From IMG/VR virus record IMGVR_UViG_2534682325_000013: 34,694 nucleotides of DNA; one strand, given 5' to 3'. Shown here in pieces: positions 9,663-19,624 of the stretch. The notes below the pieces were generated by a model. It was given only the letters and a program-made list of their open reading frames with translations, was not told the origin of the DNA and made no database searches. This DNA comes from a virus (Duplodnaviria; Heunggongvirae; Uroviricota; Caudoviricetes). A program made the position numbers and the translations under genes. Positions within the stretch are counted from its first letter, which is position 1. Each line of letters opens with the position of its first letter.

Positions 9663-9845
9663 ATGACCGAACATCGTGGCGGTGCAGGTAATTTCGCTGA
9701 AGATCGACAAAAAGCTTCTGACGCTGGTCGTAAAGGCGGCCAACATAGTGGCGGTAATTTTAAAAACGATCCACAAAGAGCATCAGAAGCAGGGAAAAAA
9801 GGTGGTCAGAATAGCCATGGTGGCGGCCGTAAATCTGACTCTTAA
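9663..9845 (+). CDS. yciG: YciG-like general stress protein with KGG repeats
   Basis: 60 aa, MTEHRGGAGNFAEDRQKASDAGRKGGQHSGGNFKNDPQRASEAGKKGGQNSHGGGRKSDS; close to E. coli YciG as I recall it. Good SD (agaggag) 7 nt upstream. First gene of a four-gene same-strand cluster. Confidence 0.85.
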   Translation: MTEHRGGAGNFAEDRQKASDAGRKGGQHSGGNFKNDPQRASEAGKKGGQNSHGGGRKSDS

Positions 9846-9882
9846 TTTATCACCCCCTACATTCGTGAATAACTGAAGCTAA

Positions 9883-9904
9883 CTGCGAGCCTACGGGCTC
9901 GCAG
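9883..9904 (+). other. Perfect 9-bp stem / 4-nt loop hairpin between yciG-like and yciF-like genes
   Basis: ctgcgagcc tacg ggctcgcag. No U-tract follows, so not a canonical intrinsic terminator; possible RNA processing or stability element. Confidence 0.5.
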
Positions 9905-9923
9905 TGAAAACTCTGGAGTGATT

Positions 9924-10424
9924 ATGCAAATTAAATCTGTTGAAGATATCTTCATCCACTTATTATCGGATACATACAGCGCTGAGAAACAACTAACAAA
10001 GGCACTGTCTAAACTTAGTCGCTCTGCATATAGTGATAAATTAACCGCTGCTTTTCAGTCACATCTTGATGAGACACATGGTCAAATTGAACGCATCGAT
10101 CAGGTTGTTGATTCTGAAGATGGTCTTAAATTGAAAAGAATTAAGTGTGCCGCAATGGAAGGACTTATCGAAGAGGCGAATGAGGTAATTGAAAGCACTG
10201 ATAAAAATGAAGTACGTGATGCTGCATTGATTGCTGCAGCACAAAAAGTAGAGCACTATGAAATTGCCAGTTATGGCACTTTGGTAACACTCGCTGAGCA
10301 ATTAGGATATAAAAAAGCGGCTAAACTCCTGAAAGAAACACTGGAAGAGGAAAAAGCTACTGATGTCAAATTAACAGACCTGGCATTTAATAACGTTAAT
10401 AAAAAAGCTCAGGATAACTCCTGA
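9924..10424 (+). CDS. yciF: YciF-like protein (DUF892, ferritin-like four-helix bundle)
   Basis: 166 aa from the ATG at 9924 (SD ggag 7 nt upstream; track ORF starts 2 codons earlier at a GTG). Sequence IKSVEDIFIHLLSDTYSAEKQLTKAL... resembles E. coli YciF. Confidence 0.85.
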   Translation: MQIKSVEDIFIHLLSDTYSAEKQLTKALSKLSRSAYSDKLTAAFQSHLDETHGQIERIDQVVDSEDGLKLKRIKCAAMEGLIEEANEVIESTDKNEVRDAALIAAAQKVEHYEIASYGTLVTLAEQLGYKKAAKLLKETLEEEKATDVKLTDLAFNNVNKKAQDNS

Positions 10425-10460
10425 ACTATAGACTTCAATTTCTTTTAGGATAAACAGATT

Positions 10461-10967
10461 ATGAATAGAATTGAACATTACCATGACTGGCTTCGTGATG
10501 CACATGCGATGGAAAAACAAGCTGAAAAAATGCTTGAGTCTATGGCCAGCCGGATAGAAAACTATCCTGAGTTACGTTCCAGAATTGAGCAGCACATTAG
10601 CGAAACAAAGAACCAGCTTTCACAGCTTGAAAGCATACTTGATCGTAATAATATTTCGCGCTCTGTCATTAAAGACTCTATGAGTAAAATGGCCGCGTTT
10701 GGACAATCCATTGGTGGAATTTTTCCATCTGATGAAATTGTCAAAGGTTCGATCAGTGGCTATGTGTTCGAACAATTTGAAATTGCGTGTTACACATCTC
10801 TTCTCGCAGCAGCCAAAAATGCGGGTGATACAGCTTCAGTACCCATTATTGAAGCAATTCTTAATGAAGAAAAACAAATGGCTGAATGGCTTCTTAACCA
10901 TATTCCTGACACCACTGAGCAATTCATGGTCAGATCTGAAATTGATGGAGTTGAAGCCAAAAAATAA
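10461..10967 (+). CDS. yciE: YciE-like protein (DUF892, ferritin-like)
   Basis: 168 aa, MNRIEHYHDWLRDAHAMEKQAEKMLESMASRIENYPEL...; paralogous to the preceding gene; 36-nt spacing. Confidence 0.85.
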   Translation: MNRIEHYHDWLRDAHAMEKQAEKMLESMASRIENYPELRSRIEQHISETKNQLSQLESILDRNNISRSVIKDSMSKMAAFGQSIGGIFPSDEIVKGSISGYVFEQFEIACYTSLLAAAKNAGDTASVPIIEAILNEEKQMAEWLLNHIPDTTEQFMVRSEIDGVEAKK

Positions 10968-10985
10968 TTCTTTTGAGGAGGCATT

Positions 10986-11876
10986 ATGTTTAGACACGTG
11001 AAAAAACTTCAATATACAGTACGTGTAAGTGAGCCAAACCCAGGCTTGGCTAATCTACTCTTAGAACAATTCGGTGGGCCACAGGGTGAGCTTGCAGCAG
11101 CATGCCGATACTTCACTCAAGGCTTAAGTGATGAAGATGCAGGCCGAAGGGATATGCTGATGGACATAGCAACAGAAGAACTAAGTCATCTCGAAATTAT
11201 TGGTTCTCTTGTTGGTATGCTCAACAAAGGTGCAAAAGGAGCACTTGCTGAAGGAACTGAGAATGAAGCTGAGCTTTACCGTTCCTTAACTCAAAATGGC
11301 AATGATAGCCATATAACTTCTCTCCTCTACGGAGGAGGCCCAGCATTAACTAATTCAGCTGGAGTACCCTGGACTGCAGCTTATGTTGATACTATTGGCG
11401 AAGTCACGGCCGATCTTCGTTCAAATATTGCAGCTGAAGCTCGGGCAAAGATCATTTACGAACGTCTCATTAATGTTACTGATGATCCTGGAGTAAAAGA
11501 CACTCTGGCATTTTTAATGACCCGGGAAGCAGCACACATGCTTTCATTTGAAAAAGCATTACATTCAATTCGTAACACCTTTCCACCAGGAAAATTACCA
11601 CCACTTGAGAAATACAAAAACGTATATTACAACATGTCAGAAGGTGAAGACGTCAGAGGTAGTTGGAACAGTGATGAAAACTTTGACTATGTTTCCGATC
11701 CAGTTTCAGCGGTTGACGGTGGGGATGGGAAGGCCTCGATAAATCTTTCGACCAAGCAAGAAGCCATGATAAAAGCTATGGCAACAAGGTTGAAATCCCA
11801 TGAAGACATCAATCCTGTCACTGGCGCTGAGCTTGCTGAAGGAGAACCACAAACAAAGATAAATAGTAAAAACTAA
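10986..11876 (+). CDS. katN: Manganese-containing (non-haem) catalase, KatN-like
   Basis: 296 aa. N-terminal four-helix-bundle region with conserved Glu/His metal ligands (EELSHLE, REAAHMLSFE), typical of the Mn-catalase family. Strong SD (gaggagg); 18 nt after the yciE-like gene. Confidence 0.8.
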   Translation: MFRHVKKLQYTVRVSEPNPGLANLLLEQFGGPQGELAAACRYFTQGLSDEDAGRRDMLMDIATEELSHLEIIGSLVGMLNKGAKGALAEGTENEAELYRSLTQNGNDSHITSLLYGGGPALTNSAGVPWTAAYVDTIGEVTADLRSNIAAEARAKIIYERLINVTDDPGVKDTLAFLMTREAAHMLSFEKALHSIRNTFPPGKLPPLEKYKNVYYNMSEGEDVRGSWNSDENFDYVSDPVSAVDGGDGKASINLSTKQEAMIKAMATRLKSHEDINPVTGAELAEGEPQTKINSKN

Positions 11877-11963
11877 TTATCTTCTGGTATTTAGCTATCC
11901 CTCATAAGTTAATTGCCGCTGAGATATCCTAAGCTCTAGCCTCTGAAAATACATTTATATTTC

Positions 11964-11997
11964 GAAGCCCGCGATATTTTAAGCGGGCTTTTATTTT
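11964..11997. terminator. Hairpin terminator between convergent katN-like (+) and tfa (-) genes, possibly bidirectional
   Basis: aagcccgc / gcgggctt stem with ~10-nt loop, followed by ttatttt on the plus strand; A/T-rich on the other side too. Confidence 0.55.
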
Positions 11998-12577
11998 AAA
12001 CTTCAGGTATTACAGGCCACTCAATATCAGGTGCAGTTGATGTATCAACACGGTTCAGCAACACCCGATACTTTTTCCAGGCTTCCAGCAATGAGGTTTC
12101 TTCCTCCGTTGCGATTTCCAGATCTACAGCATCCTGAAGTGGCGCAATATGCTCACTGGCTACCTGCATCAGGCTGTTTTTTGTTTCTTCCGCCTCCCGG
12201 ATCCGGAACAGTTTTTCTGCTTCTGCATCTTTCACCCAGGCTGTGCCGTTCCACTTCTGAAACTCCCCTTCCGGCGATAACCAGGTAACATTTTCCGGTA
12301 ATGAGCCGAGTTCAGAAATAAATAACGCGTCGCCGGAAGCCACGTCATAAACCGTTTTACCCCGATGATCTTCAACGAGATGCCACGATGACTCATCACT
12401 GTTGAAAACAGCCACGAAGCCAGCCGGAATATCTGGCGGTGCAATATAGGTACTGTTTGCTGGCAGACCTGTATGAGGCGGAATATATGCGTCACCTTCA
12501 CCAATAAATTCATTAGTTCCGGTCAGCAGATTATAAATTTTTATGGTCCGTGGTTGTTCACTCATTCTGAATGCCAT
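11996..12577 (-). CDS. tfa: Tail fibre assembly protein Tfa
   Basis: 193 aa; start ATG overlaps the stf stop (TAATG). C-terminal motif [18 protein letters not shown]...[18 protein letters not shown] typical of lambda-like Tfa. Confidence 0.9.
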
Positions 12578-15492
12578 TATGCAAGCCTCACAATGTAGTT
12601 AAATGCGATGTTTTTGACAGTGTTTTCCGCGTTACCCGCAGCGTTAACGGTGATGGTGTGTCCATGTGAGCCAATCGCAACAGAGTGCGTATGAGCACCA
12701 ATACCGACAGTATGTGCGTGAGCACCTGCAGATGCAGCTGTGCCGCTGACACTATGAGTGTGCGCTCCTGCAGCACTTGTATTCACACTGGCCGCAGACA
12801 CTACCTTATGTACTGACCCATTTTGTGACCACTGGCTGACTGCTGATGCGCCTGTGACACTATGAGTATGGTTTCCGGCACTTGCGGCTGTACCGCTCAC
12901 ACTGTGCGTGTGCGCCCCGGTGTTATTCGTGGATTTAGTGCCGTAATCAAACGACGATGTGGTTTTCGTCCCCAAATCCGTACTGGATGCGCTGGCGCTG
13001 TGGGTGTGCGATTTAATGCCGTCCTGTTCCTGAGACAATACGGCCCGACCACTGGCAGGTTTGCCCTTAATCGTCCAGCCACGCATATCAGGGATCACGC
13101 CTGACGGATAAGCGGCTGCAAGTTTCGGGTATGCAGATTTGTCAAAAGTCTGCCCCTGCATCAGGGCATAGCCAGACGGAACGGTATCTGATGGCCACGG
13201 GATTGGTGCGCCAGGCGGATAAAACTGCTCTGATGGCGTATAGAGTGAATAAACTGTACCGTCCGTTAACCCTTCCGGCTTATTAGCAGAATATGCTGGT
13301 GACGTATGAATCGTCACGCTGGCATTACTGGTATAATCCCATTGAATATTTACACCAGTCGCATAATTTCCGATTGCAACGTAAATATCGTAAGTATCAC
13401 CAGATGTATTGACCCAGGCAAAATTTGTAAACCCTGTCGATGTGCGCTGCCATAAAGCACCAGTAATCCCCTTCGGATTACCATTACCTGCACGCAAAAC
13501 AAGTTCAGATATACCTGCCTGTTGAGGTGACCCCACGTTAAATCCCGCGCCACCAATCAACGTAATTGAAACAACAGAACTCGCCTGTGGCATGGTTACC
13601 GTTGCTAATTTGAACCAACCAGCACCACCGCTGAATGACATTGTTGTTGAGTTAAGCGTACCAATATCTTTCGGCGTCAGTGTTATATCCGATGAAAGCG
13701 CCTTACCATTCACCTTACGGGCAGAAGGTACCCGACCATTCGCATTATCATTAGCTGCTTTCACTGCTTTCGGTGTCGCGGCAAGCGTTTCAGATGCGCT
13801 GTTGGTTGCACTACTGAGCTGGACAATTCCTTTTTGTGCTGTCGTAGCGTCCTGAGCAGTATATTTCCCGTTAGCAAGGTCATAGGCTGCCTTTACCGAC
13901 TTTGGCGTTGCCGCCAGCATTTCAGATGTGCTGTTGGTCGCGTTGCTAAGCTGAACTATCCCTTTCTGTGCTGTCGTTGCATCCTGTGCGGTGTATTTCC
14001 CGTTAGCCAGCTCATACGCGGCCTTAACGGCTTTTGGCGTTGCCGCCAGTGACTCGGAAGTGCTGTTAGTCGCACTGCTGAGCTGTACTATCCCCTTTTT
14101 CGTCGTGCTCGCATCCTCAAGCGCCACGGCGGATGCAATATCCTCTGCCCGTTTTGCCGCTGTCTCAGCGCGCGTTGCTGCAGATTCCGCCGTACTTTTG
14201 CTCTGAGCTGCTGCCGTCGCACTACCAGCTGCCTCTGTCGCCTTCGTGGATGCCGTCGTGGCGCTGCTCTTCGCTGCTGACGCTTGTCTGGTCGCCTCAT
14301 CTTTTGAAGCAGACGCAGATGATGCCGATGACGCCGCCGAACTGGCTGACGATGCGGCAGCCGTTTTTGAGGATTCTGCGCTGGTTTCCGACGCTTTCGC
14401 GTTCGTTTCGGATGTCTTCGCTGCGGAAGCAGAACTCGCTGCTGCGCTGGCCTGTTCAGTGGCTTCGCCAGCCTTCGTTGTGGCTGTTGAAGCAGACGAT
14501 GCGGCACTTTCTGCCGATTTTCCGGCGGCGGTGGCACTGGCTGAGGCCTGCCCGGCACTTGTTGACGCGGCACTGGCAGATAATGCAGCCGCTGTTTTTG
14601 AGCCTGCTGCTGCGGAGGCACTCTGTTCTGCTGCCGTTTCAGAGGACTTAGCGTTTGTCTCAGACGTTTTGGCCGCCTTCGCGGAATTGCCTGCCGCCGT
14701 TGCCGAGGAGGCTGCACTACTGGCGCTCGAGGCTGCGCTCGTTTCTGATGATTTTGCCGCCTCTTTTGAAGCCGACGCATCCCTGGCTGAGGAGGCAGCT
14801 TCTGACGCTTTCGTGGTCGCGGTGGATGCAGAAGTGGCGGCTGATTGTTGTGACACTGCCGCATTCGTTTCTGACGTTTTCGCCGCACCGGCACTGGTAG
14901 CCGCCGCGCTTTTTGAGGACTCTGCAGCGGCAGCACTTTTTGATGCTTCAGTAGCCTTTGTTGATGCCGTTCCTGCGCTGGAAGACGCTGACTGAGCCGA
15001 CGACGCGGCCTGTCCGGCTGACGTGCTGGCTGCGCGTGCTGAGTCCGCAGCATCAGTCGCATGGGTTGCCGCCTCACGGGCTGATGTGCTGGCATCGCTG
15101 GCTGACTTCTTCGCGGCTGCCGTGTTCTGTGCCACCGCGGACGCGTTACGCGCCACCTCTTCCACCATCAGCTCAAAACGGCGCAGTGCCTCCGGACGGA
15201 CATCATCCTCAGTCATGGCACCAAGAAAATCATTCAGCGTACCGGGTTGAGAATCTTCATACACGGTGATGGTCCCGGCATGTGACGGCGGGAACCCTTC
15301 CACCAACAGAATAACGCTGTACTGACCGTACTCAACGTCCATGCTGTAACGACCGGCTTCATCCGGATTTTCAGAGGCCACCGTGTTCACCACCACCGTG
15401 GCGCTGTTACGTCTGGCTTTCAGTTGAATGGTGCAGTTCTCTACCGGTTTTCCTGTGCCGTCTTTCAGTACACCTGAAATCTTTACTGCCAT
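12577..15492 (-). CDS. stf: Side tail fibre protein Stf, long form with Ala/Ser-rich spacer, three tandem ~42-aa repeats and C-terminal His-x-His repeats
   Basis: N-terminus [26 protein letters not shown]... is lambda Stf-like. Likely start ATG at 15492 (971 aa); the track ORF starts 2 codons upstream at a GTG. C-terminal [15 protein letters not shown] repeats resemble metal-binding His boxes of tail-fibre tips. Confidence 0.9.
13732..14112 (-). repeat. Three tandem ~126-nt coding repeats in stf ([41 protein letters not shown])
   Basis: Near-identical nucleotide units visible in the sequence, e.g. gtatttcccgttagc...ggctgcctttac recurring three times. Confidence 0.8.
14121..15141 (-). repeat. 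Low-complexity Ala/Ser/Thr-rich coding region inside stf (aa ~120-460)
   Basis: Long runs such as [45 protein letters not shown]; source of multiple spurious overlapping ORFs in other frames. Confidence 0.8.
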
Positions 15493-15503
15493 ATTCACCC
15501 CAC

Positions 15504-15529
15504 AAAAAAGCCCGCCTGAACCGGCGGGC
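15504..15529 (-). terminator. Intrinsic terminator on the minus strand between lom and stf
   Basis: Minus-strand reading agcccgcc ggttca ggcgggc followed by tttttt. Confidence 0.65.
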
Positions 15530-15556
15530 TGTCATAACACTGTGTTACCTGGCTAA

Positions 15557-16156
15557 TCAGAACTTATAACCGACACCCACGATGAAACCGTCAGTGCGCC
15601 AGTCGCCACTGCCGGAGCCTTCATAAGCAATATCAATGGCCACGGATTCGGTCGGGTTAAACTGCACGCCAGCCCCCCACGCCAGAGACGTGTTGCTGTG
15701 GCGACCGTCATCACTTCCGGTCAGCACATCGTGCGTTTTCCCCTTGTTGTCAGTTACGCGAAGATAATCCCCGGAGAAAGTCGACACACGGCTGTAAGCC
15801 ACACCCGCCATCGCATACGCGCTGAACCATTCATTCACGCGCACAGACGGCCCCGCCATTACGCTGAACCAGCGGTTACGAACGGAATCTTCATGCCAGC
15901 GGGTATCGCTGTAACGGGTAAGCTGGCGATTCTTGTCTCCTGCATAGCTGAATGACGTCACCAGCCCCAGCGTATCCGTAAACTCATAACGGTATTTCAC
16001 GTTAATCCCGTTCAGATCATCACTGCCGGGAACGTTGGTCCGGGCATGAAGATACCCCGCGCTCAGCGTGGACTGATGTTCAGATGCCCATGCAGGCGCA
16101 CCGGATACGGCCAGACAAATGGCTGCGGACAAAATGGCGGCATAAAGTTTACGCAT
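15557..16156 (-). CDS. lom: Lom outer membrane protein (Ail/Lom family), with signal peptide
   Basis: 199 aa, [41 protein letters not shown]... ending ...FIVGVGYKF; matches lambda Lom as I recall it. Confidence 0.95.
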
Positions 16157-16180
16157 AATTACCTCTCGCTTTTCTGCAAT

Positions 16181-16204
16181 AAAAAAGGCGTCATTTCTGA
16201 CGCC
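16181..16204 (-). terminator. Intrinsic terminator on the minus strand between J and lom
   Basis: Minus-strand reading ggcgtca gaaa tgacgcc followed by tttttt. Confidence 0.65.
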
Positions 16205-16222
16205 CGTTCTGGGTTATAAAAT

Positions 16223-19624
<3,402 letters not shown>

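Follow-up and report, generated by a model that had tools for sequence, protein, structure and literature searches.

The DNA analysed here is a 34,694-nt stretch from a virus of the Caudoviricetes (IMG/VR virus record IMGVR_UViG_2534682325_000013), referred to below in its entirety as the window, and the gene under study is its side tail fibre gene, stf (Table 1). The open reading frame (ORF) of stf begins with ATG, encodes 971 aa followed by a stop codon, and is uninterrupted. It lies on the minus strand, a point on which the original prediction, made from the sequence without database searches, was silent. A G-rich ribosome-binding stretch is found just 5′ of the ATG. An alternative GTG start, two codons upstream, would give a protein of 973 aa; the RefSeq annotation of Escherichia coli O157:H7 Sakai uses the ATG. 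The 2916 nt of stf were 100% identical to the chromosomes of Sakai, EDL933 and many other O157 strains, and the intact 971-aa frame claimed by the original prediction was therefore confirmed across many complete genomes. Window positions 363-31492 matched Sakai at 99.98% identity (6 mismatches over 31.1 kb). Positions 1-362 gave no alignment to the stretch of Sakai that was fetched, and in Sakai an IS629 element adjoins that point. The window thus comes from an O157 strain closely related to Sakai, not from Sakai. An exact-sequence look-up in a collection of 15 billion proteins returned neither the 971-aa nor the 973-aa form, so it is the DNA match to RefSeq genomes that establishes the identity of Stf with public records. 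No NCBIfam family matched either Stf or its neighbour Tfa.

The gene order J, lom, stf, tfa, at the end of the late operon, is that of phage lambda. An assembly chaperone of the Tfa/gp38 type adjoins stf directly, its start codon overlapping the stf stop, and is 94% identical to lambda Tfa. Together with the domain matches described below, these observations identify the ORF, with high confidence, as the stf gene of Sp8, a lambda-like prophage of O157:H7. It is a mosaic of known fibre modules, and its mechanism would follow that of its relatives. The gene is an ordinary one, already annotated and already known, and all of its modules come from described families.

Table 1 Positions of stf, its modules and its neighbours in the window
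Feature	Size or residues	Position	Strand	Basis or remark
tfa, tail fibre assembly chaperone	193 aa	11996..12577	minus	PF02413 (Caudo_TAP), E = 3.4e-45
stf, side tail fibre gene	971 aa	12577..15492	minus	
gp37-type needle with seven His-x-His (HxH) motifs	aa 807-971	12580..13074	minus	2XGF, PF03335
Tip subdomain between HxH 3 and 4	aa 878-904	12781..12861	minus	Corresponds to T4 gp37 932-959; hypervariable, presumed receptor contact
Tail-collar domain	aa 756-806	13075..13227	minus	PF07484, E = 6.6e-12; corresponds to T4 gp37 811-861
Middle domain, predicted jelly-roll beta-sandwich 'knob'	aa 590-755	13228..13725	minus	AlphaFold2 (AF2) model
Three tandem Phage_fiber_2 repeats	aa 458-589; 44 aa / 132 nt each	13726..14121	minus	PF03406 (three matches), TRF
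Ala/Ser/Thr-rich rod, 51 heptads	aa 101-457	14122..15192	minus	Heptad pattern x-S-A-x-x-A-x
105-aa segment (exactly 15 heptads) within the rod	aa 304-408	14269..14583	minus	Three-way alignment with lambda and 2H10
Lambda Stf-type N-terminal domain and linker	aa 1-100	15193..15492	minus	PF08400, 9E7M/9MGH; limits from PMC12617516
Terminator-like hairpin and T-run between lom and stf, closing lom		15509..15530	minus	Directly upstream of the stf ribosome-binding site
lom (Ail/Lom outer-membrane protein)		15557..16156	minus	PF06316, E = 1.5e-120; precedes stf, as it does in lambda
J, central tail fibre / host specificity protein	1132 aa	16223..19621	minus	Completes the lambda order
stf counterpart in Sakai, ECs_1650 (NP_309677.1)				Identical in DNA; annotated as 'phage side tail fiber protein' within 'prophage Sp8; lambda-like phage'

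The distal 228 residues (aa 744-971) aligned end to end with the solved tip of the T4 long tail fibre protein gp37 (2XGF; gp37 799-1026) at 67% identity (E = 2.5e-88). Seven HxH motifs were found, at aa 829, 861, 875, 911, 925, 934 and 943, and all 14 of their histidines were conserved, each motif falling on one of the seven iron sites of T4 gp37. With so close a match, chance is no explanation for the motifs. The resemblance to metal-binding fibre tips that the original prediction had noticed therefore holds residue for residue against the solved T4 fibre tip. In T4 gp37 the motifs coordinate seven iron atoms along the needle (PMC6957217); those of Sp8 are the predicted sites for seven iron ions on the axis of a trimer.

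Identity to T4 was unevenly distributed when mapped by region, with the T4 limits taken from Islam et al. 2019 (PMC6957217). It reached 42/51 (82%) in the collar, 37/50 and 35/50 in the two halves of the stem, and 16/17 in the C-terminal residues. The tip subdomain was the only divergent segment, with 3 of 28 positions identical (11%). Among the T4 residues mapped by mutagenesis as contacts with lipopolysaccharide (LPS) and/or OmpC, 1 of 11 was conserved in Sp8; these contacts are a feature of specificity and do not define the family. At exactly this position, unrelated tip sequences of varying length are found in alleles whose remaining sequence is 94-99% identical, and the Sp8 tip itself recurs in strain 3347558 and in phage 2H10. 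Because the scaffold is conserved while the tip is exchanged between otherwise 94-99% identical alleles, the specificity determinant would be the short tip insert. A similar pattern has been described for the T4/lambda receptor-binding-protein family, in which divergence among more than 200 members is concentrated in the specificity segment (PMC9659904).

The likeness of the scaffolds raises the question of whether the Sp8 fibre has OmpC and/or the LPS core as its receptor, in exactly the manner of lambda Stf and T4 gp37. OmpC is used by both lambda Stf (PMC12617516) and T4 gp37 (PMC6957217), the collar and needle of Sp8 have the same scaffold as those of T4, and the short motif WSQ(N/Y)G is common to the Sp8 and lambda tips. 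However, the near-complete loss of the T4 contact residues, a tip 12 aa shorter than that of lambda, and the unrelated tips borne by alleles with an equal scaffold all speak against it, and we consider binding identical to that of lambda and T4 doubtful. Since the tip keeps almost no T4 contact residues, neither T4 nor lambda tells which receptor the Sp8 fibre would use.

Outside the distal part, gp37, the fibre protein of a myovirus, bears no relation to Sp8 Stf over its proximal 800 aa. T4 gp37 depends on a chaperone, as Sp8 Stf is predicted to do. According to the account of Montag 1989 given in PMC12617516, the receptor-recognising part of the T4 fibre can be exchanged for part of the lambda side fibre.

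The modules of Stf recur in other combinations elsewhere. The fibre of phage 2H10 (LR595862, 1117 aa) shares a near-identical N-terminus, the long rod including the 105-aa segment, and a virtually identical last ~228 aa, tip included (one substitution in the alignment). It differs in having one Phage_fiber_2 repeat, an unrelated and much longer middle (~400 aa), and an invertase gene downstream of tfa. P2-like gpH fibres of E. coli and Shigella (for example P0001 and P0005) are 91-93% identical to Sp8 over the repeats and the middle domain into the collar, but have the PF12571 N-terminus for attachment to the myovirus baseplate, no Ala/Ser rod, and four repeats. The closest relatives listed (P0001-P0120) are mostly labelled 'partial', are ~500-567 aa long, and begin inside or just after the rod, which suggests that short-read assemblies routinely break in stf, a gene common to several prophages per genome.

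This shuffling, which extends even to P2-like gpH fibres, is also what would be expected if stf were an evolutionary relic, intact only through recent acquisition or inactivation of Sp8, present in no particle, and serving only as a recombination reservoir for lambdoid prophages. The state of Sp8 favours such a role: CI and Cro are absent, and neither circularisation or excision, nor replication, nor packaging of Sp8 was detected in Sakai (Asadulghani et al. 2009, PMC2669165). Among the matches listed, each matching genome held 1-17 stf-like places (median 2), and O157 records held 8-12. Against the relic explanation, the morphogenesis genes of Sp8 are reported to be all intact (PMC2669165), the ORF is without defect, full-length alleles with the same tip and 97% identity occur in non-O157 strains (strain 3347558), and a near-identical tip is carried by 2H10, a sequenced phage. 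We regard the relic explanation as rather unlikely.

Proximal to the distal part and the middle domain lie the repeats. PF03406 matched three times (E = 1.2e-51), the units being of the ~42-aa type KG-x-VQLS...AATP-x-AVK, and repeats of this type are also present in the structures of the fibre protein gpS of Mu (5YVQ/8JU3; E about 5e-8). The original prediction came close in placing three ~42-aa repeats at 13732-14112; the units are 44 aa long, whereas the Pfam model has 42 positions. In pairwise comparisons the three units were 70-80% identical in protein and 62-74% identical in DNA, and the longest exact run shared was 17 nt. Slippage in the Sp8 allele is therefore unlikely: the units are old duplications and, within the allele, offer little for slippage or homologous recombination to act on. 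All 29 alleles at least 99.6% identical to Sp8 among the matches listed had the same 2916-nt span.

Between more distant alleles, the number of copies does vary. One copy was found in lambda and in 2H10, three in Sp8 and in MLI108K1 (991 aa), and four in PO06021 (1035 aa) as in the P2-like gpH fibres; MLI108K1 and PO06021 have the same tip. The extra unit of PO06021 has an 81-nt exact run in common with one neighbour and a 60-nt exact run in common with the other. It looks like a hybrid of the two, a pattern that unequal crossing-over would yield. Rod length is not tied to repeat number: short rods were found with one repeat and with three, and so were long rods. The proposal that the tandem repeats are substrates for length variation thus stands for differences between alleles, but not for the Sp8 allele, with its diverged units and its 29 close relatives of equal length. 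The variation in copy number and the hybrid-like unit of PO06021 could also be taken as signs of a contingency locus, in which frequent changes in the number of 132-nt repeats would produce fibres of variable length within a strain. Such a locus would be recognised by near-identical units and by copy variation among near-identical alleles; neither was seen in Sp8 or in those 29 alleles, and we hold the contingency explanation to be very improbable.

The Ala/Ser/Thr-rich region was described in the original prediction as a low-complexity spacer of ~340 aa. The composition was as stated: Ala, Ser and Thr account for 74.5% of aa 115-455 (341 aa) vs 35.7% of the remaining protein. A featureless spacer was not what the analysis revealed. 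When aa 101-460 were written in rows of seven, 51 heptads followed one another in an unbroken register. Ala occupied one core position in 47 of 51 heptads and the other in 35 of 52, with Ser just before the latter in 37 of 52. Ala recurred with a periodicity of 3.5/7.0 residues at a spectral power of 45 (maximum of 13.6 across 200 shuffles), and aa 115-455 contained no Pro, Trp, Tyr, Phe, Cys or Met. Internal repeats in the rod DNA were weak (60-76% identical), and the spacings listed (42, 105, 126, 231 and 252 nt) were multiples of 21 nt. At the level of sequence, these are the features of the proximal coiled-coil rod of lambda-type side fibres, and they point to a long trimeric coiled-coil rod with an alanine core. 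The corresponding part of lambda Stf (residues 102-393) has been published as the 'proximal coiled-coil domain' (PMC12617516). A disordered spacer whose length is free to drift, suggested by the composition and by the lack of any Pfam match within the Ala/Ser/Thr stretch past aa 134, is hardly credible given this periodicity, the unbroken register, the missing residue types, a length difference from lambda of exactly 15 heptads, and the published coiled-coil model of lambda Stf.

The length difference was localised in a three-way alignment of Sp8 Stf, Ur-lambda Stf (774 aa) and 2H10 Stf (1117 aa). The segment aa 304-408 is present in Sp8 and 2H10 and absent from lambda Stf, relative to which it forms one clean insertion. 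The fibre is thus expanded relative to lambda, as had been claimed, but Sp8 is not alone in having the long rod. The rise of a coiled coil is ~0.148 nm per residue. At this value the rod would measure ~53 nm, 15 heptads or ~16 nm beyond that of lambda. Measured from one fixed motif to the other, rod lengths among the compared proteins fell into three classes (106, 254 and 359 aa). The idea that rods in general are 'quantised' in heptads was rejected: the step from 254 to 359 aa equals 15 heptads, but that from 106 to 254 aa is 148 aa, which is no multiple of seven. A match of aa 217-306 to the T7 gp17 shaft (E = 0.19) was not significant and was also set aside.

The lambda-like N-terminal attachment region of the original prediction was borne out by two matches. 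PF08400 (prophage tail fibre N-terminal) matched aa 1-134 (E = 3e-72), and aa 1-94 matched the Stf collar chain in the cryo-electron microscopy structures of Ur-lambda (9E7M/9MGH; E = 7.6e-52). In Ur-lambda, twelve copies of this domain (StfN, residues 1-91) make up a collar by which four trimeric fibres are attached to the tail (PMC12617516). Beyond the N-terminal domain, Sp8 Stf shares with Ur-lambda Stf an Ala/Ser heptad rod of equal type and register, the Phage_fiber_2 motif, the collar, the HxH needle and a common terminal sequence (11 residues), in addition to the adjoining tfa and the gene order. The suspicion that the protein may differ from classical lambda Stf was nevertheless correct: besides the longer rod, three Phage_fiber_2 repeats stand in place of one, and the middle domain and the tip are different. 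The segment from the repeats to the collar is a predicted beta-sandwich in Sp8 and a published distal coiled-coil domain in lambda. Additional inserts are present in the needle of lambda, which bears 9 HxH-type motifs.

The middle domain (aa 590-755) had no match in Pfam. Several PHROG tail-fibre families cover it, and a HMMER scan of 1.84 billion representatives returned 330 relatives at E ≤ 1e-3. These were fibre-like proteins of widely varying length, some of them with two copies of the domain. An AF2 model from the single sequence (pLDDT 55.9) gave nothing significant in Foldseek (best E = 0.059) and was discarded. With an alignment of 27 diverged relatives, AF2 gave a confident all-beta model (pLDDT 90.2, pTM 0.82) that predicts a jelly-roll beta-sandwich. 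The known structures it resembles are those of Pantoea stewartii WceF and of Acinetobacter phage tailspikes (6TGF, 6C72 and 6E1R), at 12-15% sequence identity; these are beta-helix depolymerases, whereas Stf is without a beta-helix. In WceF an eight-stranded jelly-roll beta-sandwich follows the triple beta-helix (PMC7949094), and this jelly-roll is presumably the part of WceF matched by the middle domain.

Several other features of the window touch on stf or lie near it. No sigma-70-like promoter was found in 11800-16300, in line with stf being expressed as part of the late transcript of the phage. Long ORFs (up to 335 aa) run across the rod in other frames or on the opposite strand (14088-15095, minus; 14246-14995, plus; and neighbours); as genes they were rejected, being judged by-products of stop-poor, GC-rich Ala/Ser codons. 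A pin-type invertase gene follows tfa in phage 2H10 (L003 5527-6117) and in strain 3347558 (L006 4289-4316); no invertase is present at the corresponding position downstream of tfa in the window.

Directly downstream of tfa, and inside the annotated prophage, lies a cluster of stress genes (9663-11876, plus strand) encoding a KGG-repeat protein (PF10685), two DUF892 proteins (YciE/YciF-like) and a manganese catalase (PF05067). The cluster looks like an inserted cargo block, because in other strains a methyltransferase gene directly follows tfa. In the window, a gene for a class I S-adenosylmethionine-dependent methyltransferase of 222 aa is found at 8497-9165 (plus strand); it is labelled 'hypothetical' in Sakai, and unrelated E. 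coli prophages carry the same gene in convergent orientation to tfa. At 8192-8440 (minus strand), an 82-aa ORF was found that represents a second tail fibre assembly gene in truncated form. Its residues 31-77 matched positions 75-121 of the 131-position Caudo_TAP profile, that is, the C-terminal part. In Sakai this gene is cut by ISEc8 (IS66 family; window 5767-8208), and it is probably what remains of a further fibre cassette. Further on, genes for an OmpT-family outer-membrane protease and for an alpha/beta hydrolase of 494 aa (2877-5501) lie at the annotated right end of Sp8.

Taken with the known fibres, the modules of Sp8 Stf suggest how the protein would work. Three Stf chains would assemble into one fibre, docked by the N-terminal domain (aa 1-~91) in a dodecameric tail collar as solved for Ur-lambda. 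The coiled-coil rod of aa 101-457 would hold the distal parts away from the tail, and the Phage_fiber_2 repeats and the jelly-roll knob would lengthen the shaft. The last ~215 aa would fold, with the help of Tfa, into a gp37-type collar and a six-stranded needle stapled by seven metal (iron) ions, each held by the HxH motifs of all three chains. The 27-aa tip between HxH 3 and 4 would then make the reversible first contact with a surface receptor and speed adsorption ahead of the binding of J to its own receptor. In lambda, the side fibres are not essential but speed adsorption 10-30 times on OmpC+ cells (PMC12617516). The likely host-range determinant named in the original prediction would be such in a particle; the term describes what Stf would do there and makes no claim about an active phage.

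Some considerations weigh against this interpretation. Sp8 is without CI and Cro, and no packaging of it was detected in Sakai, so the fibre may never be built from the Sp8 locus. Whereas the identity of the gene, its domain matches, its heptad register and its 14 conserved histidines are established, trimer formation, iron binding, the need for a chaperone, the length of the rod and the receptor role are predictions from homology and sequence. The fold of the middle domain depends on a prediction, and the sequence of the tip suggests that OmpC/LPS binding is not transferable from T4.

A broader reading would join several of these observations. Lambdoid side fibres would be tuned in discrete units (heptads, with 15 added here; 44-aa repeats; and swappable knobs), the jelly-roll would be a second, lectin-like glycan site, and the fibre cassette of a non-inducible prophage would act as a donor that re-targets co-resident Shiga toxin (Stx) phages. 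We consider this combination improbable. If it were true, discrete-unit tuning would determine how far the needle extends through layers of O-antigen or capsule, and the lectin-like middle domain would give the fibre two receptor contacts.

The importance of Sp8 stf beyond its annotation is small: it is a catalogued gene, and its modules have a Pfam family or a solved homologue. What is added is modest: the rod is given an explicit heptad register and shown to differ from that of lambda by 15 heptads, and to this come a confident fold prediction for the middle domain and one polymorphism of three vs four repeats with a hybrid unit. The Ala/Ser region is to be regarded as a structural rod that varies in heptad units and not as dispensable low complexity. 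Fibre typing in Shiga toxin-producing E. coli needs long reads, as stf probably breaks short-read assemblies. Finally, the part that would specify the receptor is narrowed to ~27 residues on a conserved scaffold, and aa 878-904 would be the segment to swap or mutate when lambda- or P2-based particles are engineered against O157-like hosts.

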